From Haliotis rufescens (lineage: Eukaryota): 64,000 bases of DNA. The stretch is taken from positions 30,504,001 to 30,568,000 of the forward strand of contig NW_025964001.1 of the NCBI RefSeq assembly GCF_023055435.1, given 5' to 3'. Every line of letters begins with the position of its first letter. Positions within the stretch are counted from its first letter, which is position 1. A model generated the notes under the pieces. It was not told the DNA's origin. It saw only the letters and a list, made by a program, of their open reading frames with translations, and ran no database searches. This document shows positions 1 to 17,772 of the stretch, one piece after another. Position numbers and translations under genes: made by a program.

Positions 1-1534
1 AGACCGGAATATCCAGTGACCTGACCGCGCATTTGCTGGTTTTATTGATACTTAAACTGAAATGTTACCTTGGGTGAGTGAGAGTGAAATTTAACGTCAC
101 ATCGGCAATATTCCAGCCATATCGTGACGATGTTACTTTTAAATTACGTCTGCTGTTAAATGCATGTAAAGACAATTGTTTATGAAATACGTTCGTTTCG
201 CAACACAGTGGGGGCAGTTTTTATGCCTCGGCTCAAATATTTCTTTTGTAGTTGACTCTGATGAAACTCGGGGACTTCAGTCCATCAGCATAAACATCGA
301 TCCATTGCAACTAAATATAAAACGGCAACGTCAAATTATATTGAAACACGTAGTTTTAGGTTTACAATAACAAAAGGCAATACAATGGGTAAAATAAGTG
401 ACAGCAACAATAAATAATATATGACAGTCATTCGAATTATTCTGGGGCAGTTTGGCCACTAGGTATTGTACGAGCGCTTCATACATTTGCTGCCACCAAC
501 ACTCGTCAAATCCTACAACAATATCTACTGCCACATAACACTCTCTCCCTTCAAAAAGTAATCTTTGAAAACAGTGAAAACCTTCTTTAAAGTTGGACAA
601 GGATTTCAAGGATAAAAGACTTTACATAACACGTTCTGTTAAACATGTTAAAAGAACATAAAATACATGCTACCATTATACATGCATAATTTAGCAAAAC
701 GGTTTTTGTGTACTGATCCAATCAACTGACTCTTGATAGTGCATCTGCCATTACATTCTCTGCCCTTGATATGGTTTGGAGATTAAACCGTTCCAAAGAC
801 AAACTCCACCTAAACAACCTCTGATTTTCGTTCTTCCTAGTACATTTTGTCTAAGTGGCCAACAAATGTTTATTTGTCGGATCTGGTAAAAAAGGCAATA
901 GGTTCTACTTTTGCAATGATCGGTTGTACCTGACCTTGACCGAATGCATGCCCGAAGAACACTTTTGCAAGACTAACACTTAATGTTACCTGAGAAAGTA
1001 TCTCAAAGAAGGCACGGACCCCCTTCAACTGATCGTCTCGATGTTAGTCTCTGTACCCTGTAGGCCTGACGTGGCGTCAATGGTGAGTAACCGGGGCATT
1101 TTTTAACCCAAATGGCATAACATGAGTGGGTTGGTGCGATACGGATGCTGTTTCACAGGCAATGCTACACTTAGGCCTGTCATGACTAAGTCGGCATGAC
1201 CAGGTACAACTGGAAACATATGTACAAACATGGCAGTTAAAACTGTCTTTGTTGTGCTGGGGTAAAGAGAGCCAACTTCACATTAAGATTGTTTAACACC
1301 TCACAATTTGTAAGGATGGGGCTAGCCTTCTGATCTGTTTAAAATCAAACTTCACGCGCTCACTTCTAAAGACAAATTGACAAATGAGACAACTTGTCGT
1401 TTTCGGTGACCTGGAGTTTCATCGACCTTCTTACCTATTATCGCATAAGGACCTTGGTATCTAGCCATCAATGTTCAACTCGGGTAGGAAACAACACTAA
1501 AACACGCCATGACTAAAATGCCGTTCTTTGGAAA

Positions 1535-1718
1535 TAGGCGACTGTGCTTGTCGTAAGAGGCGACCAACGGGATCGGGTGGTCAGACTTGGTTGATGCATG
1601 TCATCGATCCCAATTGCGTGGATCGATGCTCATGATATCAATCACTGAATTGTCTGGTCCAGACTCGATTATTTACAGACCGCTGTCATATAGCTGGAAT
1701 ATTGCGGCGTTGAACAAC
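1535..1718 (+). mobile_element. Short retroposon family C, 5'-truncated
   Basis: GTCGTAAGAGGCGAC motif, shared body and GCTGGAATATTGC tail. Confidence 0.78.
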
Positions 1719-2052
1719 AGAAAAGACAAGAGTAACACCACATTGCCGAAACAGTATTGTGATCGCAGAAAATGTTTCTTTGTATCCGCGATCTCTAGGG
1801 ACAGTATTACTCTACAGCATACTATCATAAAGTTAAAAATATATGACTGTGTGATCTTTGATGAGATATTTGAACTGACAAGTACAATTGTATAATTATG
1901 TACGGGAGAGATGTGCCTATATAACAGTAACATATATAAACAAATAATTCGCCGATACTTGGAGGAGTGAGCTGATGTAAATAAAAGCGACAAAACACTT
2001 TCCATATTCATTAGAAATCTCTGGGCAAAAGCAGGGATTGCACGATACCGAC

Positions 2053-2434
2053 TAGGGCTGGGACGAGTCCAACTTTACTACCCGGGTACCCGATCCCCTA
2101 TTACCCGGTCCTACCCGGTACCCACTGCAGGTCTCAAGATTTGGGAACAAAATGTCTGATTGGGAATTATTTTATCGCAGCCCTGTCAAAAACTAATTAG
2201 ATTCTTGTATCAAACGATCAATACACTGAAGTTGACTGGAGTTTTATCTTTACTCAAACATATACATGTCAAAAGGAATGTATGCATCGTCAGAAAGAAA
2301 TGCGAAGTGAGTGAGTTTTTGTCATCAAACAATATATCACGTGACTAACCACGGGTCCGGGTAGTCCTGTGGGTACCCGGGTCCTACTCAGGACCTACCC
2401 GACCCAAGTACCCGAGTTACCCGTTCCAGCTCTA
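2053..2434. mobile_element. Non-autonomous hAT-type DNA transposon (MITE)
   Basis: Termini TAGGGCTGGGACG / CGTTCCAGCTCTA, repeated subterminal TACCCG motifs, 8-bp TSD ataccgac/attccgac. Confidence 0.75.
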
Positions 2435-2474
2435 ATTCCGACTATATCATGAGCATGTGTTTATGAATCACTTT

Positions 2475-2642
2475 CACATGGCGATGATACCAGGAGTTAG
2501 CGAAAAGGTACCGAATCCGACAAGTGCTGCTTTAGTCCGAGACCGTGTTTTCAGCCACGTATGTGGTGCTATACTTCCGGAGGGCTTACTGGTCAAAGGG
2601 AGGTAATTCCACGTTAGACCGAACGGAAGATTGCCAGAGAAC
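2475..2642 (+). promoter_or_regulatory. MNAT1 proximal promoter / 5'UTR
   Basis: CpG-enriched, no obvious TATA box; YY1-like ACATGGCG (2476) and ETS-like ACTTCCGG (2573) upstream of the ATG. Confidence 0.45.
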
Positions 2643-2731
2643 ATGGACGAACAAGGTTGTCCAAGATGTAAAACAACAAAATATCGGAACCCCTCACTGA
2701 AATTACTAGTCAACGTTTGTGGACACTCATT
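2643..2731 (+). CDS. MNAT1: MNAT1 (CDK-activating kinase assembly factor MAT1) coding exon 1; full CDS join(2643..2731,6022..6174,7779..7852,9056..9159,10215..10355,10937..11053,12319..12446,15670..15826), 320 aa
   Basis: Translates [29 protein letters not shown], nearly identical to the vertebrate MAT1 RING N-terminus; donor GTGCGT at 2732, phase 2; exons total 963 nt in one frame. Confidence 0.96.
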
Positions 2732-3597
2732 GTGCGTGAATGTTTCATGTGTATCCTAATAGTCCTACTTCATTTTTTCATATAAAGAAAGGAGCATATA
2801 ACATATAGATTGTCCTATTTTCGATCAGAACAAACGTGCCCTCATCATGCTATGATTTATATTTTATCATGAAGTACTGGTAGAGAAAATAAACCTGTAC
2901 ATGGTTATTGTCAAAAAAGACATATAAGCAAAACTAGTCATATGTTACGAAGAAAGTAAAAAGTATTCCGAAGACGTTACTTTGAATTGAAGAATTTGAA
3001 CTCAAGAGAAAAAACAAACAACATTGATAAACAACACAGACTTATCAGGACAAAAAAAACATTTGGGATATCTCATTTGGGAAAAAATGCTGATGTTTTA
3101 TTGTTTAGTGCAGTTTTATTATCCCTTTACCATCATTCATAAATGTTAAATTTTTTCTCAACCAAGAATTGTTTTACAAAAACGTTTACTTCAAAATAAC
3201 ATTTCTCCTACAAGCAAATGTACAACAGAATCAAGTATGACAGTATGTGTCCTCACTCTCCGAAGGTTCACACTCCAATGAACTCACACATCCCGTTGTG
3301 GTCCATTAAAAGATATATACACATGTTCATTTGGTATGTTTAGCCTCTTGTTTCACTGATGGCTTTTCCACTTGAACATTTTGCTTTATATAAGTTACAG
3401 AACTTTAGGTATTGTGATGTGTTTAAGCTTTCCAATGGGCATTTATTGTTTTGTTTTTTCAAAAGTCAGCCTTGTCTTGCGTTCCTAGTGAAGACGACTA
3501 CATATACCCTATAATCACATGTTTATGCACAGAACCTCAAATTCCCCTATAAATCCTATGTACATCATTCTGTATGTTCTTGCCTCTTATCCTGTGT

Positions 3598-3881
3598 GGG
3601 GGCACTGGTGGCCCAGTCGTCTAAGGCGCTGCAATTCGCTGTGCAGAGTTGCGTCCCTTGGGCATGCCAGAAACCTATGATTGTGGGTTCGAATCCCGGT
3701 TTGCCCCAATTATGTTTCTAGGTTTGTCAGCACCATACCAGTGCTCGTGGGTTTCACCGAAGTGGTAAACGTCTAAGACCTGCATCACTTCGGGCTTTCC
3801 TCCCACATTAAGCTGACACGCCGCGATATATCTGGAATACTGTTAAAAGTGGCGTTAAACCCAACTCACTCACTCACTCAC
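3598..3881 (+). mobile_element. tRNA-derived SINE family A
   Basis: A box TGGCCCAGTCG, B box GGTTCGAATCC, (CACT)n tail, TSD cttatcctgtgt/cttaccctgtgt; 4 copies in window. Confidence 0.85.
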
Positions 3882-4493
3882 TTACCCTGTGTAGGGGTGG
3901 TCATAGCCTGTGTTAGGTAATCCATGCATGTTGACAGTCAAAAATAGTCAGTGTTGGAAGCATTTCGGGTTAAGGCAGTGATGGCGCTGCCTTTGTTTTG
4001 TGTGCATTTGCAAACATTCTTTCTTGTTACAGTATTCACAGGTGTCACGTCAGACTTGCTGTTGTTCTATAGTAACTACTCTAAATGTAGGCATTATGAT
4101 ATTCAGCCATACTGAATAGTCAAATGTAGGTGTTCTGTAGGGACGATACACCAACTGTGCGATCTGATACTTGCATGTGCACTTATCTGTGGTGCGTAAG
4201 CCATCTTTTTCATAGACGGGATAGCCAAATACCTGTCACACTAATGATTAACAGTTGGCAGTGTCATGAAATGGATGAAAATAATTATGTTTTCACTACT
4301 CATTTTCACTAGTAATTAGTGTTTGGTGTAACACTTATTCAAGAAAACACTTAAGGTAAGAATTGAAACTTTTTACAAAGTGTGTGACTGTGATCTATAC
4401 TTGTATCGAGAAGTTAAAAATCACGATCCACCGATGCATTGGTGTATCGTCCGACCACTAGTTTTCTGACATGTACAATGTACAATTTCTACA

Positions 4494-4722
4494 ATGTACT
4501 CTCAAATGTAGGTGTTATGGCATACAGCTACACTGTACTCTCAAATGTCGGTGTTATGGCATACAGCTACACTGTACTCTCAAATGTAGGTGTTCTGACA
4601 TACAGCTACACTGTACTCTCAAATGTAGGTGTTATGGCATACAGCTACACTGTACTCTCAAATGTAGGTGTTCTGACATGCAGCTACACTGTACTCTCAA
4701 ATGTAGGTGTTATGACATACGT
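4494..4722. repeat. 42-bp minisatellite, about 5.5 copies, abutting the 40-bp array
   Basis: Unit tgtactctcaaatgtaggtgttatggcatacagctacac and variants; an isolated related copy near 4077. Confidence 0.85.
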
Positions 4723-4726
4723 GCAG

Positions 4727-6049
4727 TTTTCACTGTTGTAGATGTGAGAGCTGTGTGGACCTGCTGTTTTCACTGTTGTAGATGTGAGAGCTGTGTGGAC
4801 CTGCAGTTTTCACTGTTGTAGATGAAAGAGCTGTGTGGACCTGCTGTTTTCACTGTTGTAGATGTGAGGGCTGTGTGGACCTCCTGTTTTCACTGTTGTA
4901 GATGAGAGAGCTGTGTGGACCTGCTGTTTTCACTGTTGTAGATGTGAGAGCTGTGTGGACCTGCTGTTTTCACTGTTGTAGATGTGAGAGCTGTGTGGAC
5001 CTGCTGTTTTCACTGTTGTAGATGTGAGAGCTGCGTGGACCTGCTGTTTTCACTGTTGTAGATGTGAGAGCTGCGTGGACCTGCTGTTTTCACTGTTGTA
5101 GATGAGAGAGCTGTGTGGACCTGCTGTTTTCACTGTTGTAGATGAGAGAGCTGTGTGGACCTTCTGTTTTCACTGTTGTAGATGAGAGAGCTGTGTGGAC
5201 CTTCTGTTTTCACTGTTGTAGATGTGAGAGCTGTGTGGACCTGCTGTTTTCACTGTTGTAGATGAGAGAGCTGTGTGGACCTGCTGTTTTCACTGTTGTA
5301 GATGAGAGAGCTGTGTGGACCTGCTGTTTTCACTGTTGTAGATGTGAGAGCTGCATGGACCTGCTGTTTTCACTGTTGTAGATGTGAGAGCTGTGTGGAC
5401 CTGCTGTTTTCACTGTTGTAGATGTGAGAGCTGTGTGGACCTGCTGTTTTCACTGTTGTAGATGAGAGAGCTGTGTGGACCTTCTGTTTTCACTGTTGTA
5501 GATGTGAGAGCTGTGTGGACCTGCTGTTTTCACTGTTGTAGATGTGAGAGCTGTGTGGACCTGCTGTTGTCATTGTTGTAGATGTGAGAGCTGTGTGGAC
5601 CTGCTGTTGTCACTGTTGTAGATGTGAGAGCTGTGTGGACCTTCTGTTTTCACTGTTGTAGATGTGAGAGCTGTGTGGACCTGCTGTTTTCACTGTTGTA
5701 GATGTGAGAGCTGTGTGGACCTGCTGTTGTCACTGTTGTAGATGTGAGAGCTGTGTGGACCTGCTGTTTTCACTGTTGTAGATGTGAGAGCTGTGTGGAC
5801 CTGCTGTTTTCACTGTTGTAGATGTGAGAGCTGCGTGGACCTGCTGTTTTCACTGTTGTAGATGTGAGAGCTGTGTGGACCTGCTGTTTTCACTGTTGTA
5901 GATGTGAGAGCTGTGTGGACCTGCTGTTGTCACTGTTGTAGATGTGAGAGCTGTGTGGACCTGCTGTTTTCACTGTTGTAGATGTGAGAGCTGTGTTAAC
6001 CTGCTATGTTCACTGTTGTAGATGTGAGAGCTGTGTGGACCTGCTGTTT
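4727..6049 (+). repeat. 40-bp tandem array (33 copies) made of the MNAT1 intron 1 / exon 2 junction
   Basis: Unit ttttcactgttgtag|atgtgagagctgtgtggacctgctg; AG ends at 4741+40n up to 6021, with no indels. Confidence 0.97.
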
Positions 6050-6174
6050 ATCAAGGGGTCGGGGACATGTCCAGAATGTGGCACAGCTCTCCGGAGAAAC
6101 AACTTCCGACTACAGATCTTCGAGGACTCCAATGTGGAGAAAGAACTTGACATTAGAAAGAGAATACTTAGAGA
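6022..6174 (+). CDS. MNAT1: MNAT1 exon 2 (C-terminal half of RING finger)
   Basis: [50 protein letters not shown]; acceptor ttgtag (6021), donor gtaagg (6175). Confidence 0.95.
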
Positions 6175-6470
6175 GTAAGGAACCTTTGATTAAATCGTAA
6201 AAGAAGCTTGTTTACACTACCGATAAGCATGTAAACTACCTGACTGTACAAAGAATAGAAGGTTAATACATCGCAAATAATGATGCATCTTGATAAATGC
6301 AGGGTTTCAAATTTCCATATAAGGTTTCCAACAGCATGCTTAAAATAATAATGGCATGGTTGACATAAGTTGTGTGTCCCTACAGGACACACTTAGTAAT
6401 CATATTCTTTTAATACCTAATCTGGTGGGAGGTTGTAAAAGACTCTCTTTATTTTTTTACCAAAAAAAAA

Positions 6471-6800
6471 GACTGCTTCCGTGGTCTAGTGGTAGAGCAT
6501 CCGCCCGGAGAGTGGATGTTCGATCCCCGGCCGCGTCATACCAAAAGACGTTTAAAGATGGTACTTATTTACACTGCTTGGCGTTCGGCATAAAGGGCTT
6601 ATTACAAGGACTGGTCAGCATGGAGTCGGTATGCTGTGCCTGAGTGGGGTATTCATGTTAAACTGCTGCATGGTATCTCAGTAGACTAGCACTATTAAAT
6701 GGGCTAGTACAAGCAGCCTCACTCACACGTGCATTCACGTCGCTTTATAAGTGCAATAGTCTTAAAAGCCACGTTAAACCCTATTTTACCTCACCTCACC
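6471..6800 (+). mobile_element. tRNA-derived SINE family B (Meta/MESC-like central domain)
   Basis: TGGTCTAGTGGTAGAG A box, GTTCGATCC B box, then GTCATACCAAAAGACG...ATGGTAC core; superfamily assignment from memory. Confidence 0.75.
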
Positions 6801-7037
6801 AAAGAAAAGGTAATGCTATCCCTCTGTAACTGGTGTGGTTTGTATAGATTTCTAGTGCCGTATACAAGGGGCAATGAAGGGGCTACTTATATTTTTGCAA
6901 ATACTAATCAACACTTTTCTAGATTTCTAATGGCTGTCAGTGGCAACTGCTACAGTGGATGGACCTGTAATGCTGTGTTATGTTGGACCAGTGAATGATA
7001 TTAATTTTAAGAAAAGAAGCTAAACATCTCAAATATC

Positions 7038-7767
7038 ACTCACCCACTCTGACCAGACATGGCATCAGACTCACCCACTCTCTGGCTATACATGACATCA
7101 GACTCACCCACTCTCTCACTATACATGGCATCAGACTCACCCACTCTCTGGCTATACATGGCATCAGACTCACCCACTCTCTGGCTATACATGGCATCAG
7201 ACTCACCCACTCTCTGACTATACATGGCATCAGACTCACCCACTCTCTGGCTATACATGGCATCAGACTCACCCACTCTCTGGCTATACATGGCATCAGA
7301 CTCACCCACTCTCTGACTATACATGACATCAGACTCACCCACTCTCTGGCTATACATGGCATCAGACTCACCTACTCTCTGGCTACACATGGCATCAGAC
7401 TCACCCACTCTCTGGCTATACGTGGCATAAGACTACCCCACTCTGGCTATACGTGGCATAAGACTACCCCACTCTGGCTATACGTGGCATCAGACTACCC
7501 AACTCTCTGACTATACATGGCATCAGACTCACCCACTCTCTGGCTACACATGGCATCAGACTACCACTCTGGCTATACATGGCATAAGACTACCCCACTC
7601 TGGCTATACATGACATCAGACTACCCAACTCTCTGACTATACATGGCATCAGACTCACCTACTCTCTGGCTATACATGGCATCAGACTCACCCACTCTCT
7701 GGCTATACATAGCATCAGACTCACCCACTCTCTGGCTATATATCACATCAGACTCACCCACTCTGAC
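7038..7767 (+). repeat. 33-bp minisatellite (about 22 copies) ending 11 nt before MNAT1 exon 3
   Basis: Unit actcacccactctctggctatacatggcatcag. Confidence 0.95.
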
Positions 7768-7778
7768 TTGTGTTCTAG

Positions 7779-7852
7779 TTTCAACAAGAAAGAAGAGGAC
7801 TTCAGTTCGTTGAGGGATTTCAATGACTATCTGGAGATGATTGAGACAATAG
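7779..7852 (+). CDS. MNAT1: MNAT1 exon 3
   Basis: FNKKEEDFSSLRDFNDYLEMIETI; ttctag / gtaaac; phases 2 and 1. Confidence 0.94.
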
Positions 7853-8601
7853 GTAAACACTCACAACCAGTATACCGTAATGCCTGTTTGGTTTTAGTTA
7901 AAGAGAAAGAGAAATGTTCCAATATCATTTCATTTGTACAAAATATTCACTGTTCAATTAAGGATTAAATACTGAATTTACTTTTAGATATAAATATCTT
8001 TCGTGAAAATTTGCCTTTTGTGTACATATTTGCCTTTTTGTGTACATATTGACTTCAGTGTGTTAGTGGTGCTGAAATTATCCTGAAATAGAAAAGGTTT
8101 CTTTGATGTATGAAAGTGTAACTTTCCAATGGTCCTGTATATCCTAACCAGTTTGGCTGCCTGTATCATTCACCATAACTAACCTTTCCTTGCTCTGAGG
8201 AAGGCAGATGCATCCACATCTTGCCGTTGTTGGCTAGTGATCTATTGTGCAAGTCAGGGGAGAGCTACAGTTCCTTCTGACAAGTAACATATTGGTGTAA
8301 TTTCCAACACTGCTGTGGAGAAAGTGTTGAGCCACATGCTGTTCTTCTGTCTACTCGTGGTTGACTTGATGTGTATGTTCTGTGTCACTTCCCTTGTTAG
8401 TGCTACTGTGGCCAATATCTTTGAAATCACATCTTTTACTCTGATATGAATTACAATATCTGACTGTATTAAGGTCTTAGGACACCTCCACAGAAGGTTG
8501 TATCCAATCTAAATACATGTGTAGGTTCTTTCAAAAACAATTTGGCTTCATTTCTTTACCCCCTCGAAATAAAGATACCCTGCACAGGACACAAGTATGA
8601 T

Positions 8602-8687
8602 GATGATACTTCGATGATACTTTGATGATACTTTGATGATACTTCGATGATACTTCGATGATACTTCGATGATACTTCGATGATACT
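8602..8687. repeat. 11-bp tandem repeat
   Basis: (gatgatacttc)n. Confidence 0.9.
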
Positions 8688-9055
8688 CCATTTTTGGTGT
8701 AGATAACATGCAGCTCAGACACGAACAGTGAAAGGGGGATCTAGTTATGGGTGCTGTTCTTCTGTCTGTCCATCCGTCACATTTCGTTACAGGGCAAAAC
8801 TAAAAAACTATGAGAAATATCTTTACCAAACTTGGCACATACATAGGTCTATTGGTGAACTGGTGCCTTTTGGTAGTTTGGAAATTAAAAAAAAGAATAT
8901 TTTTTTTAGTTTCCATGGCAACGACTTTGACTTAGACTGAAAGTGGGGATCAGCCCGTTGTCTGAATATGGCCTTGCTGGTGCATGTGTGTCAACTATGT
9001 TTTATTTTTCTTGTTTATAAAATATCAACTATTTCTACTTTTTATTTGAGAGCAG

Positions 9056-9159
9056 TTTTCAATCTGTCCAATGGTATTGATGTCGAGAGCACACGCAAGA
9101 TGATAGAACAGTACAGGAAGGACAACAAAGATCAGATCAAGAAAAACCTTTCAAAAATG
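9056..9159 (+). CDS. MNAT1: MNAT1 exon 4
   Basis: VFNLSNGIDVESTRKMIEQYRKDNKDQIKKNLSKM; gcag / gtaaac. Confidence 0.93.
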
Positions 9160-9340
9160 GTAAACAATTTTATTTTATTTTTATTCCTGTTTTCTAGCAC
9201 TGATCTACAATGCAATTTTGTGTGTCCAAAGGCATGATGTCAGTGTACTGTGTTTACAGATGGGCAAACACCCCTCGCTTACTTACTCTCACTAACTGAC
9301 ACAATAATTGAAAGTATTTACCTGTGTTATAAACATACCT

Positions 9341-9626
9341 GGGGGGCACTGGTGGCCCAGTCGTCTAAGGCGCCGCGATTCGCTGTGCAGAGTTGCGTCC
9401 CTTAGGCACGCCAGAAACCTATGATTGTGGGTTCGAATCCCGGTTCACCCCGATTATGTTTCTAGGTTTGTCAGCACCATACCCGTGCTTGTGGGTTTCA
9501 CCTAAGTGGTAAACGTCTGAGACCTGCATCACTTTGGGCTTTCCTCCCACATTAAGCTGACACACCGCGATATAACTGGAATATTGTTAAAAGCGGCGTT
9601 AAACCCAACTCACTCACTCACTCACT
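9341..9626 (+). mobile_element. tRNA-derived SINE family A
   Basis: Near-identical to the 3598 copy; 13-bp TSD tataaacatacct. Confidence 0.88.
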
Positions 9627-9776
9627 ATAAACATACCTCACTACTTTGCCCCAGTGTAACATGCCAGAAGTGTGTAGACCTTGGATTATGTTGAAAAAGA
9701 TTTAGCAACCCATTTCAACAATGGTGTCCACCATAGTTAGGTTCAGACCGTTTCAGCACTTCTCATATGCTCCAGG

Positions 9777-10067
9777 ACCGCCTCTGTGGTCTAGTGTTAG
9801 TGCGTCCGCCCGGAGAGTGGAAGGTCTGGGGTTCAATTCCCGGCTGCATCATACCAAAAGACGTTAAAATATGGTACCTTTTGTTACCCTGTCTAGCACT
9901 TAGCGTTAAGGGGCCAAAACTGCGGCATGGTTTCTCAGTCGTCTAGAACTATAAAATCAGCATCTGTCCGGACATGTACAAGCAGCCACACACACACACA
10001 TGCATGCACGTGCTGTGTAATTGCAATAATCTTGGATGTGACGTCAAACCCCATTTCACCTCACCAC
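9777..10067 (+). mobile_element. SINE family B
   Basis: Same head, core and tail as the 6471 copy. Confidence 0.75.
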
Positions 10068-10214
10068 ATATGCTCCAGTTCAGTTTTTTCATAAGAAAAC
10101 ATGAATTATTTATCATCACCACTTATCTTTGGTCCTTGTGTTTTATCAACTTGTGCAAATGTATTCTTTCAGTAATTCTTCATGATATTGTGAAAATTCA
10201 TATATTTCTCCCAG

Positions 10215-10355
10215 AGTAAAGACCAGGAGTACCTCGATCTGCTCATTGAGCAGGAGAAACATGAGACCGCAGTTCGACTTCAGATGATGGAGGAAGAGGC
10301 CGCCAGGGATAAAGCCTTGAAGAAGAAGAACAAGGCTGCCCTGATTGATGAACTG
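10215..10355 (+). CDS. MNAT1: MNAT1 exon 5 (coiled coil)
   Basis: SKDQEYLDLLIEQEKHETAVRLQMMEEEAARDKALKKKNKAALIDEL; ctcccag / gtgggt; phase 0-0. Confidence 0.92.
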
Positions 10356-10404
10356 GTGGGTAGTGTGCACATGATGCCCTTCCTGTAGGTGAAGGCCAGC
10401 TATG

Positions 10405-10830
10405 TTGTCTCCTGCCACGAAGGGGAAGGGGGATATAGGAATGGTTGCTGTCCGTCCGCCCCTCCGTCCATCCGTCACATTTCGTTTCCGGAGCCGAACT
10501 CAAAAACCATGAGAGATACCTTAACCATACTTGGCACAAAGATAGGTCTTGTGGTGAACTGGTGCCTTTTGATAGTTGGGGATTTCTGCCATGGCAACGA
10601 CTTTGACTTAGACTGAAAGTGTTGGTAGTGCTCCTTTCCGGAACAGAACTTGAAAACTGTACAATATTTCTTCACAAAACTTGGCAAATAGACAGGTCTA
10701 GTGGTAATCTGGTGCCTTTTGATAGTTTGCAATTTTTGAAAGATTTATTTTTCGAGTTTCCATAGTCACGACTTTTACTGATATTGAAAATGGCAGTAGT
10801 CGTCTGGAGGGCTAATGCCTTGCACACAAC
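10405..10830 (+). mobile_element. HINE/DINE-1-like (Helentron-associated) element with internal repeats; relatives at 8725-8960, 21330-21530 and 58990-59430
   Basis: (GTCC)n seed, ACATTTCGTTTCCGGAGC motif and repeated GTGAACTGGTGCCTTTTG / CCATGGCAACGAC block shared among four loci; class assignment from memory. Confidence 0.55.
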
Positions 10831-10936
10831 CAGACATGTCATATTGACGGGATATGAGTATTTCAAGCTTGTTTAAATCATCCTGTATCTCAACATGGAT
10901 TCTGCTACAGTGCAGTGCAGTGTTTGGCTGTTACAG

Positions 10937-11053
10937 ATGTTTTCGGAACTGCCTGCCACGGACATTGTGGCCACCCACAGAGAATGTGTGACCCAACTTG
11001 AGGCTGCCACCCGTGCAACTGCTGCCACCACCTTCTCTACCGGGATAAAGATA
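10937..11053 (+). CDS. MNAT1: MNAT1 exon 6
   Basis: MFSELPATDIVATHRECVTQLEAATRATAATTFSTGIKI containing the conserved FSTGIK; ttacag / gtcagt. Confidence 0.9.
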
Positions 11054-11304
11054 GTCAGTATTCAGTTTAGCATTGCCTATTTATGTAAGGCTTCATGGTA
11101 AAAGTCTAAGATGGTTTTTTCCTGTGTTTCAGTCTTTGTAACCATCATGTAAAAAGACTTAACACTTTCACCATACATTTTACTATTCATTATATGAGTC
11201 CAGTTTGTGGTTAGAAACTGCTGAAAATTCATCGTTGATGATTTCCTTGATGACAGCAATTTTCAATTTATATGAATCACAGATAATATCTGAATGTTAA
11301 TTGA

Positions 11305-11815
11305 CACCCCTGTGGGGATTCCAGGGCAAAATATGTTCCTCGTACCCTCTGCTTGTTGTGAGAAAATAAGGATCAGGGTGCCGTTGTACAAAGCAATCTT
11401 AGTGTTAAGGTAGGGTAACTCCCATACCTTAACATAGACTTAGGGACAGTCGGGTAGCCTAGTGGTTAAAGGTAAAGCTCATCACGCCGAATGCCCGGGT
11501 TTGATTCCCGACGTGGGTACAATGTGTGAAGCCCATTTCTGGTGTCCCCCGCCATGATATTGCTGGAATATTGCTCAAAACAGCGTAAAACCATATTCAC
11601 TCACTGACATAGACTTAGGACATTCGTAGTGCTAAGGTTGTTTTGTGCAACGACACCCAGGTGGTTAAAGTGTGTGACCTGGCTGATAATGTGTCCCCTG
11701 GCCCCAAATACTCACACAGTCAATCACTGGATTACCCGGCCGACACTCAGTTATATATGGGCTGCCATGATATAGCTTGCATATTGCTTATGGTTATGTA
11801 AATCAACATTCACTT
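11305..11815 (+). mobile_element. Nested insertion: old family C copy > Harbinger-like MITE (11377-11657) > tRNA-SINE family D (11445-11606)
   Basis: MITE TIR ggtgccgttgtacaaagcaatcttag / ctaaggttgttttgtgcaacgacacc with CAG TSD; SINE TSD acatagacttagg; family C sequence resumes after the MITE. Confidence 0.75.
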
Positions 11816-11833
11816 GCTGATCTTTTTCAATTG

Positions 11834-12282
11834 CAATCTCATTAAAATCGGATCTTAGTTCTCGCTATCATTAAACAAAGAGGGCATCCCATTAGGGGGC
11901 ATGTCAGAAAGACTTTTCATCCAACCAATCAGAGCGTCGCTTACCAGATCATGAATATGACAGTCGGAATGTGATTTCTGAAAGATTAAACACGGTTATC
12001 CGAGCGACAGTTACAGGCTTTATGACTGAATCCATACAATCTAGGCCATCTATTAGCCACTCCAGAATGTTTGTTTGTTCTGTTTTCAAATTTTTAATCG
12101 AGAATTTGTCAAAATATGTTTCAAAGCGTAGTCACCAGTTTGAAACTAGCGCCATGAAGCAGGAAAAAGCTGCCTTCCGATTGGGTAATGCGACTTCTTG
12201 TCAGTCATTCCATTGGTCGGTCAAAATTCACGAAAGGTTGTTTAGCGATAGCAAGAATTAAGATCTGATTTTAATGAGATTG
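11834..12282. mobile_element. MULE-like MITE
   Basis: Long TIR CAATCTCATTAAAATC...; 9-bp TSD tttcaattg/ttccaattg. Confidence 0.8.
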
Positions 12283-12318
12283 TTCCAATTGTAATATTGC
12301 TGTGAACTAACCTTGCAG

Positions 12319-12446
12319 GGTCATCACGACACCGTTCTGCCACTTCCTGGTTGTGAGGACAATGACGATGCATATATGTACCTGCCCTATAACTTGAACA
12401 ACAGCGGCCCCAGACTTGTTGCCCAGGAAGATATACACAACCTAGG
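12319..12446 (+). CDS. MNAT1: MNAT1 exon 7
   Basis: GHHDTVLPLPGCEDNDDAYMYLPYNLNNSGPRLVAQEDIHNL; branch point actaac then ttgcag; donor gtaagc; phase 0-2. Confidence 0.88.
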
Positions 12447-12505
12447 GTAAGCATCACTTGAATTAGATACATGTAATTATTTATAATCCTTCTAAGACCC
12501 TTGCG

Positions 12506-12822
12506 ACCGCCTCCGTGGTCCAGTGGTAGAGTGACCACCCAGAGAGCGTTAAGTCCGGGGTTGATTCCTGGCTGCGTCATACCAGAAGACGTTAAAAGAT
12601 GGTACTTGTTGTTACCCTGTGTGGCGCTCAGCATTAAGGGGCTAAAACAACGTCTGGTCGGCTCGTAGTCAGCATACTGTGTCTGAGTGGGATATTCATG
12701 TTAAAGTGCGGCGCATGGTATCTCAGTGAGCTAGCACTATAAATCAGTATCAGTCCGGACTAGTGCGCACGCACGCACTGTGTGCATGCACGTTGCTATA
12801 TAAGTGCAATAATCTTAGACCG
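12506..12822 (+). mobile_element. SINE family B
   Basis: Same head and core as other copies. Confidence 0.75.
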
Positions 12823-13200
12823 TTGCAAATTCTTACTTAGGACACTTGTTCCTGAATCCAATTCAATTTGAGTGTCAGTTATGAATGCCTCACAACAAAA
12901 ATAATGAATACCGTATTCAACGTAATAAGCGCCCAGAGCACTCTCAAAATTAGAAATAGGAATTATTAGAATATTATTTTGGTGGAAAAAAGAGAGTTGA
13001 AAGATAAATTTCATGGTTTATGCTGACACACTGAAATGTTTATATGCGACAGATACATATTTCCAGAATTTAATTGCCCATAATTAAGAATGCATATAAC
13101 ACATGAGTGTGTATTATATGCGAATAATTAAGTCTTGTGTACATTGATCAACCAGAAGGAGTGCTAATTGGGATTGTTCAGTAGCCAATATATTAGCAAA

Positions 13201-13375
13201 GCCCCAAGTGATGCAGGTCTCAGACGTTTACCGCTTCAGTGACATCCACGAGCACGGGTACGGTGCTGACAAACCTAGAAACATAATCGGGGTAAACTGG
13301 GATCATAGACTACTGGCGTGCCCAAGGGACGCAACTCAGCACAGCGAATCACGGCACCTTAGATGACTGGGCCAC
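13201..13375 (-). mobile_element. SINE family A, partial
   Basis: Reverse complement of the family A head and body. Confidence 0.75.
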
Positions 13376-13955
13376 TGAACAGTAGAAGTTGTAAACACTC
13401 GTAGTGTAATAAGACAAGTGTCCTTGTTGCTGCCATGTTAGATGCTCGTGTAGACAGCAGTGAAATATCGAAGTAACAAAATCCACTTAATCTTCTCATT
13501 TTGCTTCTATTTTCTAGTGTCTACAGTTGTGATAATTCACAAACACAAATACACAAATTTGGATTGAGAAACACAGGAAACAGGAGAAGGTGCTAAATGT
13601 GCTTGATAGAGGGCTTCTGATACAATCTGATAGTGATAACAATATTTTATGAGTGTTTCATTTGTTACCACAAACAACTTACAGGACACCATGGAAACCG
13701 GTTATCAAGAGTGATAATTTTTGTCACCGTAATATGTTTGAAGCTTCAAATTAATAATGTACTATTATTTTCAAAATATAAAAAAAAATATTAAGACTTT
13801 AGTTTAGTCCACCACTTGTTTTCAGGAAGCTTATGACCAAGAGAATGGAAGCATGGAAATGTACAGGGTTAGGAGGTAGGTATGTTGTAGAAGTACCTGT
13901 AGTGTTGGTAACGGTACCTCTACAAAATACCTACTACCTGTACATGATTTTTAAG

Positions 13956-14186
13956 ACCCGTGAAGATCTGGGGTAGAATAGGTCTTCAGCAACCCATCCT
14001 TGTCGTAAGAGGCGACTAACGGGATCAGCTCCTCAGGCTCACTGGTTGGTGCATGTCATTGTATCCCAATTGCGTGGATCGATACTCATGATTCTGGTCC
14101 ACACTCGATTATATACAGACCGCCGTCATATAGCTGGAATATTGCTGAGTGCGGCATTAAGCAACAAACAAAACAAACAAACAAAC
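13956..14186 (+). mobile_element. Short retroposon family C
   Basis: ACCCGTGAAGATC head to (AAAC)n tail. Confidence 0.82.
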
Positions 14187-14389
14187 ATGATCTTTAAGTG
14201 GCATTCTAGAAGATGTACTGTTAATGCAAACAGAGTTGACATGTGGATTTTAGCTTCTTTTTTTTTCTAAGCAACATTTCAGCTCAGGTGCTCATACACA
14301 TATCTTACAACTGAAGAACAAATGGTTAGGGCTTGGTTACATAGCAACACTTACATTTTTATGGATATTATCAAATAGAACAAATATGG

Positions 14390-14673
14390 AACCCGTGAAG
14401 ATCCGGGGTAGAATAGGTCTTCAGCAACCCATGCTTGTCTTCCCCGTGAAGACGTAAGTGCGACTTTGCTTGTCGTAAGAGGCGACTAACGGAATCGGGG
14501 TGGTCAGGCTCGCTGACTTGGTTGCTGCATGTCATAGTATCCCAATTGCGTGGATCGATGCTTATGATGTCAATCACTGGATTGTCTGGTCCAGACTTGA
14601 TTATTTACAGGCCGCTGTCATATAGCTGGACTATTGCTGAGTGTGGCGTTAAACAAAAAACAAACAAACAACA
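14390..14673 (+). mobile_element. Short retroposon family C
   Basis: Full-length copy with an expanded hairpin module. Confidence 0.85.
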
Positions 14674-14943
14674 AATAATGTCAGGGAATAAAGCCTTGGA
14701 ACAACAGTTTGTATTAGTTTGTAGTTCTAGGTCGTTGTGACCCCTGATCACATATGATTCTAGTTGATAAGGTGAGGGTAGGCTGATTGGTTGAAGAAAC
14801 CCTGGTCTATGTTGATGGCCAGTTGGAATGTTTTATGTGGATGGCCTCTGTTAGATTTCTCATGTTGAGTCCAGGAATATTCCAGCTGTATGACGGCAGA
14901 CAGTGATTAATGTTGTGAACATCAATCTGGGTCTGATGACATG

Positions 14944-15432
14944 CAATCTCATTAAAATCAGATCTTAGTTCTCACTACCGCTAAACAAAGATCTGAGGAC
15001 ATCCCATTACGGTTCACGTCAGGCCAACCTTGCGCGAACTTTGACTGACCAATGGAATGATCAATCAGAAGGCAGCTTTCTCGTGCTTTACGGCACTAAT
15101 TTCAAATTGGCGACTACGCTTCGCAACATATTTTGACAAATTCTCGATTACAAATTTGAAACCTAAACAAAAGGACATTCTGGAATGGCTAAAAGATGGT
15201 CTAGATTGTATGGATTCAGTCGTTAAACCCGTAACTATCGTTCGGAATACCCCGTGTTAAAGTTTTCGAGGTTGTATGATAAGAAATCACATTCCGAATG
15301 TCACTTTCATGATCTGGTAAGCGACGCTCTGATTGGTTGGATGAAAGGTCGTTCTGACGTGAACCCTAATGTGATGTCTTCAGATCTTTGTTTAGCGGTA
15401 GCGAGAACTAAGGTCTGATTTTAATGAAATTG
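14944..15432. mobile_element. MULE-like MITE, same family in opposite orientation, inside an old family C copy (about 14875-15536, - strand)
   Basis: Same TIR; perfect 9-bp TSD gatgacatg; internal sequence is the reverse complement of the 11834 copy. Confidence 0.83.
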
Positions 15433-15669
15433 GATGACATGGATCAACCAAGTCACTGAGTCTGACCGTCCGATCCTTTTGGTTGTCTCTTGTGACCAGC
15501 ATAGGTTGCTGGGGACCTAACCCAAAATCCCCACAAGAAGAATGTGATCTGAGATGGCAGGTTTTGTGTCTTGTTCATTTGTTGATCTGTGGTGTTGGTG
15601 GATGGTGAGAGGTGAGTGGGGTTACTGTTTTTTCTGATGTATGTACATGTAACGTTGCTTGTCTTGCAG

Positions 15670-15826
15670 GTACCTCTCTCATGTCCGCCCAGCAACAGAC
15701 ATGGAACGTGGTGGAGGTTTTGAAGCCAGGATAGCCTGCCAGCGAGCTCTCCATGATGCTCTTAGCGGACTTTTCTACTTCCCGGAAACTGACAGCAGTT
15801 CTGGGCTACAACCTATGGTCACATGA
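15670..15826 (+). CDS. MNAT1: MNAT1 exon 8 (CDK7/cyclin H-binding C-terminus) with stop
   Basis: (G)YLSHVRPATDMERGGGFEARIACQRALHDALSGLFYFPETDSSSGLQPMVT*, matching the MAT1 C-terminal GYLxHVR...ACxRAL...SGLF motif. Confidence 0.94.
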
Positions 15827-16274: not shown

Positions 16275-17772
16275 TGCATTACATAATGTCCTTATCTGCA
16301 GGGTATGTTGTGGTCCTGCAGAACATGATGTCCTTATGTGCAGGGTATGTTGTGGTCCTGCAGGACATGATGTCCTTGTGGACAGGGTATGTTGTGCTCC
16401 TGCAGTACATGATGTCCTTGTGGACAGGGTATGTTGTGCTCCTGCAGTACATAATGTCCTTGTGGACAGGGTATGTTGTGCTCCTGCAGTACATAATGTC
16501 CTTGTGGACAGGGTATGTTGTGGTCCTGCAGGACATGATGTCCTTGTGGACAGGGTATGTTGTGGTCCTGCAGGACATGATGTCCTTATGTGCAGCGTAT
16601 GTTGTGGTCATGCGTTACATAATGTCCTTGTGTGCAGGGTAAATTGTGCTCCTGCAGAACATGATGTCCCTGTGTGCAGGGTAAATTGTGCTCCTGCAGA
16701 ACATGATGTCCTCATGAACAGGGTATGTTGTGGTCCTGCAGAACATGATGTCCTTATGTGCTGGGTATGTTGTGGTCCTGCAGAACATAATGTCCTTATG
16801 TGCAGGGTAAGTTGTGGTCCTGCAGAACATAATGTCCTTGTGGGCAGGGTATGTTGTGTTCCTGCAGAACATGATGTCCATGTGTGCAGGTACATTGTGC
16901 TCCTGCAGAACATGATGTCCTCATGAGCAGGGTATGTTGTGGTCCTGCAGAACATGATGTCCTTATGTGCAGGGTATGTTGTGGTCCTGCAGAACATGAT
17001 GTCCTTATGTGCAGGGTAAGTTGTGGTCCTGCAGAACATAATGACCTTGTGGGCAGGGTATGTTGTGCCCCTGCAGTACATAATGTCCTTGTGGACAGGG
17101 TATGTTGTGCTCCTGCAGGACATGATGTCCTTGTGGACAGGGTATGTTGTGCTCCTGCAGGACATGATGTCCTTGTGGACAGGGTATGTTGTGGTCCTGC
17201 AGGACATGATGTCCTTGTGGACAGGGTATGTTGTGCTCCTGCAGGACATGATGTCCTTGTGGACAGGGTATGTTGTGGTCCTGCAGGACATGATGTCCTT
17301 GTGGACAGGGTATGTTGTGGTCCTGCAGTACATGATGTCCTTATGTGCAGCGTATGTTGTGGTCATGCGTTACATAATGTCCTTGTGTGCAGGGTAAATT
17401 GTGCTCCTGCAGAACATGATGTCCGTGTGTGCAGGGTAAATTGTGCTCCTGCAGAACATGATGTCCTTATGTGCAGGATAAGTTGTGGTCCTGCAGAACA
17501 TAATGTCCTTGTGGACAGGGTATGTTGTGGTCCTGCAGTACATGATGTCCTTATGTGCAGCGTATGTTGTGGTCATGCATTACATAATGTCCTTGTGTGC
17601 AGGGTAAATTGTGCTCCTGCAGAACATGATGTCCTTGTGTGCAGGGTAAATTGTGCTCCTGCAGAACATGATGTCCTTATGTGCAGGATAAGTTGTGGTC
17701 CTGCAGAACATAATGTCCTTGTGGGCAGGGTATGTTGTGTTCCTGCAGAACATGATGTCCATGTGTGCAGGT
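16275..17772. repeat. 42-bp minisatellite with higher-order blocks
   Basis: Unit tgcagggtatgttgtggtcctgcagaacatgatgtccttatg. Confidence 0.95.

Follow-up and report, generated by a model that had tools for sequence, protein, structure and literature searches.

Intron 1 of the MNAT1 gene of Haliotis rufescens ends in a tandem array that repeats the acceptor itself, and this locus raises two linked questions: how one AG is chosen among 33 near-identical ones, and what part in that choice is played by a branch-point-like motif, TTAAC, lying in front of the last of them. The analysis covered a 64,000-nt window (the whole stretch examined; assembly GCF_023055435.1, contig NW_025964001.1, positions 30,504,001 to 30,568,000, forward strand), together with the contigs of 8 of 24 listed sequencing runs, from organisms labelled A to E, and a sample of introns and arrays from elsewhere in the genome.

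MNAT1 (MAT1) is an essential gene required for cell-cycle control. Eight coding exons, spanning 2643-15823, were assigned by tblastn; the translation of 6023-6172 covered the latter half of the RING finger and matched MAT1 (human chain, E 1e-20), its best database match being a Haliotis MAT1 (94%), and exons 1 to 3 joined via the AG at 6020-21 agreed with H. rufescens entry P0055 at 105/105 residues. The features of the junction were as follows:

2643..2731, plus strand: MNAT1 coding exon 1, with donor GT at 2732; loose ends of RNA contigs coincide with its 3' end.
4489..4720, plus strand: 39-bp array of 5.9 copies, with the surroundings of the ancestral branch motif included in its unit; the array's last 17 bases agree with the letters found upstream in an array-free relative.
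4704..4741, plus strand: ancestral intron end, composed of a TGAC motif (A4715, at -27), a tract, and the first AG (4740-41), recognized by its match to organism D.
4722..6049, plus strand: 40-bp mirage minisatellite of 33.2 copies with 96% matches, from repeat analysis.
6020..6021, plus strand: functional acceptor AG, from RNA contigs and as the sole AG giving no premature stop.
6022..6174, plus strand: MNAT1 exon 2, encoding the C-terminal half of the RING finger, with donor GT at 6175, from homology and RNA contigs.

The 40-bp unit was composed of exon 2 nt 1-28 plus the final 12 intron nt (20 intron nt when the microhomology is counted), and all 33 copies in 4722-6049 carried a TAG acceptor. 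The array represented a single locus, as a 191-base query from it matched nowhere else in a genome search; by contigs it was present in organisms A, B, and C (in C as a collapsed 70-nt contig) and absent in organism D, and the depth ratios of its contigs were 277/22 in X15 and 445/9.9 in X11, depth not being equivalent to copy number. The first AG (4740-41), left as a decoy 1280 nt ahead of exon 2, was preceded by TTATGAC (A4715, at -27) in non-unit sequence.

Several further repeats and variants were recorded at this locus. The 39-bp array at 4489-4720 abutted the 40-bp array and was built around the ancestral branch motif. A 33-bp array at 7038-7764 stopped 14 nt short of the AG of exon 3; its units each have a branch-like CTCAC plus a CAG, which makes a second decoy-rich intron end in MNAT1. 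A 42-bp array at 16281-17771, just 3' of the MNAT1 stop, had a unit with the donor-like CAGG|GTATGT, to which no exon could be matched. At 6003 (unit position 22), T was found in the array contigs of X5 and X6 and as a minority variant (4/32) in the window, hinting at quick turnover between animals. At 6049 in exon 2, organisms A and B had T and organisms C, D, and E had C, the corresponding array unit position being T; this synonymous change may reflect conversion of the exon by the array.

The AG used in mRNA was read from three runs whose RNA-type status was guessed and whose contigs were spliced. All three (organisms A, B, and E) joined exon 1 to the last AG: X5 and X19 each gave a single contig composed of exon 1, 6022..6174, and exon 3, and X6 agreed across two contigs, so that the end of exon 1 preceded 6022 and exon 3 followed 6174. 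The contigs are, as we take it, built from 31-letter words with a 30-nt word overlap; since the repeated part of the exon (28 nt) is shorter than this overlap, a contig that connects exon 1 with the unique part of exon 2 reveals splicing at the last AG. In addition, exon 1 spliced to any of the 32 upstream AGs was computed to reach a stop at residue 30 or 42 (32/32). The last AG is therefore functional, as the first-pass annotation had held. Because contigs lose rare forms and decay would remove the others, these data establish the productive choice and not its fidelity, and low-level mis-splicing may occur.

The sequence comparison of the units was then centred on the exon-proximal copy:

5982..6021, plus strand: last full unit with four private changes, from unit alignment; the same letters are found in X6 contig 11 (organism B).
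5994..6000, plus strand: derived branch-point-like motif TGTTAAC, with the predicted branch A5999 at -23, from the sequence and the branch model.

The stretch 5991-6021 read ctgtgttaacctgctatgttcactgttgtag. Compared to the majority, the last full unit differed by 5997 G>T, 5998 G>A, 6006 G>A, and 6008 T>G, and the remaining 31 full units had 0-2 differences, mostly shared. The metazoan U2-type branch point reads yUnAy; TTAAC conformed to this, and it was the only YTRAY inside the array (at 5996). A5999 lay 22 nt from G6021 (position -23), hence within the expected 18-40 nt of the used AG, and the AG at 6020 was the first one downstream of it. The predicted U2 pairing count was 5.0 of 6 for TTAAC versus 3.5 for the decoy heptamer.

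The first-pass annotation had described much of this correctly, namely the TGGAC in the other units (31/32 full units, with TTAAC in the last one only) and the 22-nt distance of A5999 from the AG. The TGGAC>TTAAC change that it reported is real, but the last unit has four private changes and not two; TTCAC, which it placed in every unit as a caveat, was present in 29/33 copies, and since none of 347 introns had a TTCAC with its A at -13..-7, it is no serious competitor. An assembly artefact was rejected as the origin of TTAAC: a 76-nt contig of X6 (contig 11, depth 3.4) agreed with the reference letter for letter at 5997-6012, within its span of 5967-6042, and shared a 30-nt overlap with a contig running into unique exon 2. 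The TTAAC unit is thus common to two organism labels, as seen in this one low-depth contig. No contig with the TTAAC unit was seen in X1, X11, X15, and X5, which is uninformative because contigs collapse the array and lose single-copy variants. At 6033, in the middle of a RING cysteine codon, the contig ends of X6 implied a different letter in the unspliced TTAAC contigs, possibly an error given a depth of 3-4.

A branch-point model of this genome was built from 16 dynein heavy-chain gene regions (1.76 Mb), in which junctions were called by aligning 106 of 270 dynein proteins (those of at least 1300 residues), yielding 544 introns at first and 729 after extension, 525 of them of high confidence. 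In 347 introns, the stretch -35..-18 held YTRAY at 1.8-fold enrichment, most of all at -24..-21, and TGGAC at 0.68-fold. An EM branch model from 446 acceptors yielded the motif TNA[C/T], with 87% having T at -2, and positions peaking at -25 to -21, so that A5999 (-23) falls at the modal branch distance of the genome. Branch motifs were weak overall, the median best score being 4.25 at real acceptors versus 3.75 in control windows. Scoring with the position prior put the first AG highest (84th percentile), then the last copy (65th), with decoys 2-32 lowest (8th-14th). Without the prior, the other real MNAT1 acceptors ranged from the 0.4th to the 84th percentile, those of exon 4 (~10th) and exon 6 (0.4th) being no higher than the decoys; a good motif is therefore not required, and an acceptor may be used despite a weak score. 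Of 114 single changes, just five brought the unit up to the median, the largest gain coming from 5997 G>T (95th percentile); 5998 G>A took the PWM score back down from the 95th percentile to the 65th, yet it improved the predicted U2 pairing. An improved pyrimidine tract at the last acceptor was ruled out, its -20..+2 score (26th percentile) being slightly below those of the decoys scored (28th-34th).

The state before the array was sought in organism D. Both of its DNA runs (2/2) gave one contig running from exon 2 to 6002 and then departing from the reference, and the next 18 letters matched window positions 4704-4721 at 17/18, so that the intron end of D resembled that at the first AG of the window, with TGAC at -27 and no TTAAC. 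As judged from these contigs, organism D has no array adjoining exon 2. The window had no match, at up to 3 mismatches, to the 15 letters lying furthest upstream in the loose end as displayed. X17 had G at 6006, and T at 6008 was deduced by counting the differences left unlisted. Whether D is ancestral or collapsed, the pre-array end had no TTAAC either way, and TTAAC is therefore derived within exon-born sequence; its retention as an ancestral branch point is ruled out by the same intron end. The heptamer TGCTGTT was common to the intron end and the exon, 40 nt apart.

The comparison was also applied to arrays spanning other junctions. Among adequately supported introns, 9/665 acceptors and 19/665 donors lay in arrays, with 11.2 of each expected under uniform seeding, and a tenth acceptor array (93-bp unit) was added by eye; four acceptor rows with an alignment margin of at most 5 were excluded, being artefacts that repeated pieces of exon had produced. 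The acceptors of these ten arrays were assigned by protein alignment and not by RNA, and all the genes belonged to one family, searches of the kinase and myosin families having yielded no exon sets fit for use. The arrays, of 3-30 copies, were:

G000:C334:4425822, plus strand
C334:4449646, plus strand
C68:4562271, minus strand
C46:22231516, plus strand
C605:44790667, minus strand
C312:2642818, minus strand
C583:6798620, plus strand
C583:6772987, plus strand
C179:3585588, minus strand
C179:3537339, minus strand

Their last copies contained no private change in seven cases, one change at a far site in one, and 3-4 private changes in two, in which no branch gain resulted and the branch score dropped in one. 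In 0/10 arrays did the exon-proximal copy exceed the best decoy in branch score, and two arrays retained 19 and 29 decoys with an intact AG. The next decoy would be frame-shifting in 7/10, and of the three in frame, the two tested both had stops. Evidently, and by analogy with human donor VNTRs, the exon-proximal copy is able to win unmarked. The ten arrays did share one property that MNAT1 lacks: each of their units contained 27-44 intron nt with the branch zone included, compared to 12 in MNAT1. Donor arrays had less than 26 intron nt per unit in 10/20 cases (versus acceptor arrays, Fisher p 0.011; uniform-phase p 0.0008), with the 26-nt threshold chosen after the data were seen, small numbers, and donor values taken by hand with duplicates and one unresolved row excluded.

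Other properties of these arrays were recorded in passing. AG|GT was found in 6/10 acceptor arrays versus 150/525 of all acceptors (post hoc p 0.04), which makes rescue by stepwise re-splicing a lead; zero-length recursive splicing was rejected for MNAT1, whose units read AG|AT and not AG|GT. In the dynein gene regions, arrays ending 0-40 nt upstream of an acceptor AG numbered 24/168 versus about 10 expected, the ends given by the repeat finder being noisy, and arrays starting at most 40 nt after a donor numbered 10, at expectation; the 3' ends of introns may thus be favoured sites for the seeding of minisatellites. The left edges of the C583:6798620 and C312:2642818 arrays started with exon-derived sequence instead of an ancestral intron end, suggesting that their original first acceptors were deleted later.

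We consider it reasonably probable that a 40-bp duplication gave rise to 33 acceptors with 12 intron nt per unit, that the last copy is used, likely by position, and that TTAAC serves as a replacement branch point. Slippage at a 7-8 nt microhomology between intron end and exon, for which TGCTGTT would by our inference be a sufficient seed, may have produced the first duplication; by the sequence itself, the short unit brings no branch site to the last acceptor and the intact ancestral one now lies 1280 nt from the exon, and exon-derived TGGAC would have stood in the place of a branch site. Exon definition (downstream donor plus exonic enhancers) would favour the exon-proximal AG, and since the ten other arrays lack a marked last copy, position probably picks the site. 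The T at -25 would supply the U at -2 required for U2 pairing; 5997 G>T alone would suffice by score, the other three changes probably being passengers. Selection would then shield the last unit from array homogenisation, and nonsense-mediated decay would hide residual mis-splicing. Since the MNAT1 unit has 12 intron nt where those of the ten other arrays include the branch zone, TTAAC is a candidate that most likely, with somewhat better than even confidence, restores the lost branch point, and its part is likely to be repair and not labelling.

That repair is set against an account in which position secures the last AG, a weak site does the branching (e.g., the TGA at -35 that all units share), and TTAAC arose by chance as an edge unit drifted neutrally out of reach of homogenisation; we regard this as unlikely, though it deserves serious weight. 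The edge effect in this genome is strong: across 62 arrays, that of the window included, private changes per unit averaged 0.86 in the outermost, 0.66 in the second, and 0.13 in interior units, and at least four private changes were found in 8/124 outermost and 5/124 second units. Boundary units of mirages are likewise left out of homogenisation in the portion of PMC3087553 drawn on here. Drift is also in keeping with the low branch scores at other real MNAT1 acceptors, with a PWM score that three of the four changes did not raise, and with simulations in which four random changes gave a branch gain by chance in 4-12% (YTRAY in window in 4%, the PWM score equalled in 10-12%). Against it, edge clusters matched for position were rare: at least four private changes occurred in 3/138 depth-matched array ends, in 1/38 where the outer 28 nt were clean, and in 0/30 ends of homogeneous arrays with clean outer 28 nt. 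The gain moreover sits at the modal distance, includes the best of 114 single changes, and occurred in the sole array of 11 having no native branch zone in its unit. Compared to the divergence from D in intron 2 (about 2%), the Poisson probability of at least three events in 40 nt was 0.006-0.06. The joint chance of such an edge cluster and of a branch gain within it was roughly 0.1-0.3%, for a feature picked post hoc. These tests, each modest individually, jointly favour selection over drift, if not decisively.

Two further accounts give the private changes an active part in acceptor choice or acceptor exposure. Scanning from a branch point to the first AG downstream is an established principle, to which PMC1557585 refers, and it counts for the proposal that TTAAC itself selects the last AG, in which case the acceptor would move with the motif; TTAAC is also the sole YTRAY in the array and precedes the used AG. 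This was essentially the position of the first-pass annotation, which took the motif as a new branch point found only before the functional acceptor and marking it among 33. The new branch point stands insofar as the motif is derived, formerly exonic, at the modal distance, and before the used AG; its exclusiveness does not, as the first AG is preceded by the higher-scoring native TTATGAC (84th percentile versus 65th for TGTTAAC), and the marking role is not supported either, because that first AG is nevertheless absent from the mRNA contigs and because the last copy has no private change in 7/10 other arrays with up to 29 decoys. We hold selection of the AG by TTAAC to be improbable. More improbable again is that the four changes were kept for loosening a predicted unit-to-unit RNA pairing over the true acceptor: three majority-type units are predicted to fold strongly (z -3.1) and the terminal stretch is not (z 0.09), with a predicted unpaired fraction in the last 30 nt of 0.46 versus 0.36 with majority letters, but equal opening arose in 33/300 random four-change sets, decoys reach 0.35-0.42 unpaired, and the YAG itself is less open. 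RNA structure may help, by an effect that the models place within the range of random changes.

The replacement reading places this array beside three known systems. The amphioxus mirage minisatellites (Adh3 and the globins BflGb6/BflGb9; PMC3087553) are, in the part of that source consulted, tandem copies of an intron 3' end plus the 5' part of the exon in front of the real exon, in which AG signals are repeated, splicing is normal, and boundary units escape homogenisation. The same was found here: the unit spanned the exon-intron boundary (28 exon plus 12 intron nt), the splice signal was repeated by the units (33/33 TAG), regular splicing was kept (3/3 RNA-type runs), and the boundary unit escaped homogenisation (last full unit, four private changes). 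Unlike the amphioxus mirages, the abalone array sits in a gastropod, has 33 copies and a unit too short for the branch zone, can be compared with an array-free relative in which the ancestral end is visible, and bears a derived branch-like motif in its exon-proximal copy. Branch points are not discussed for mirages in the consulted part of PMC3087553, and PMC2812944, in the portion consulted, concerns intron gain and not acceptor choice. Donor-spanning human VNTRs are described at F7 IVS7 (37 bp), CBS IVS13, IFI6, LMNB2, and PDGF (PMC1557585); as far as the sections used here go, they likewise place identical splice sites in series within the intron, and it is position, not sequence, that singles out the one nearest the exon. 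What those VNTRs repeat is a 5' splice site, which is self-contained; a copied acceptor depends in addition on a branch point 18-40 nt in front of it, and this is the constraint met at MNAT1. TTAAC resembles the metazoan U2-type branch point in its T at -2, its A at -23, its C at +1, and the use of the first downstream AG, and differs from a typical one in being built, as a candidate only, from exon-derived sequence after a duplication. A literature search found neither a branch-point gain in a mirage nor abalone mirages; it probably missed the primed spelling of the 3' splice site, and subscription papers lay outside its scope.

MNAT1 offers a natural experiment in how the spliceosome chooses 1 of 33 near-identical acceptors, with the before (organism D) and after (organisms A and B) states existing in living relatives, and position, branch motif, and structure could be distinguished there in a three-way test. 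By the survey, roughly 1.4% of the acceptors and 2.9% of the donors in the sampled genes would lie in such arrays. A wider picture can be offered tentatively, at slightly less than even confidence: abalone genes would contain thousands of junction-spanning minisatellites, selection would retain acceptor arrays only where each unit has a branch zone, and MNAT1 would represent an escape, in which a branch point was born de novo from exon-derived sequence in an essential gene, an event datable to the Haliotis radiation. To our knowledge, few functional branch zones have been mapped in this phylum. If the branch-zone filter holds genome-wide, functional branch zones would be mapped by the repeat units of such arrays, and short-read assembly and annotation would face a systematic hazard from them.
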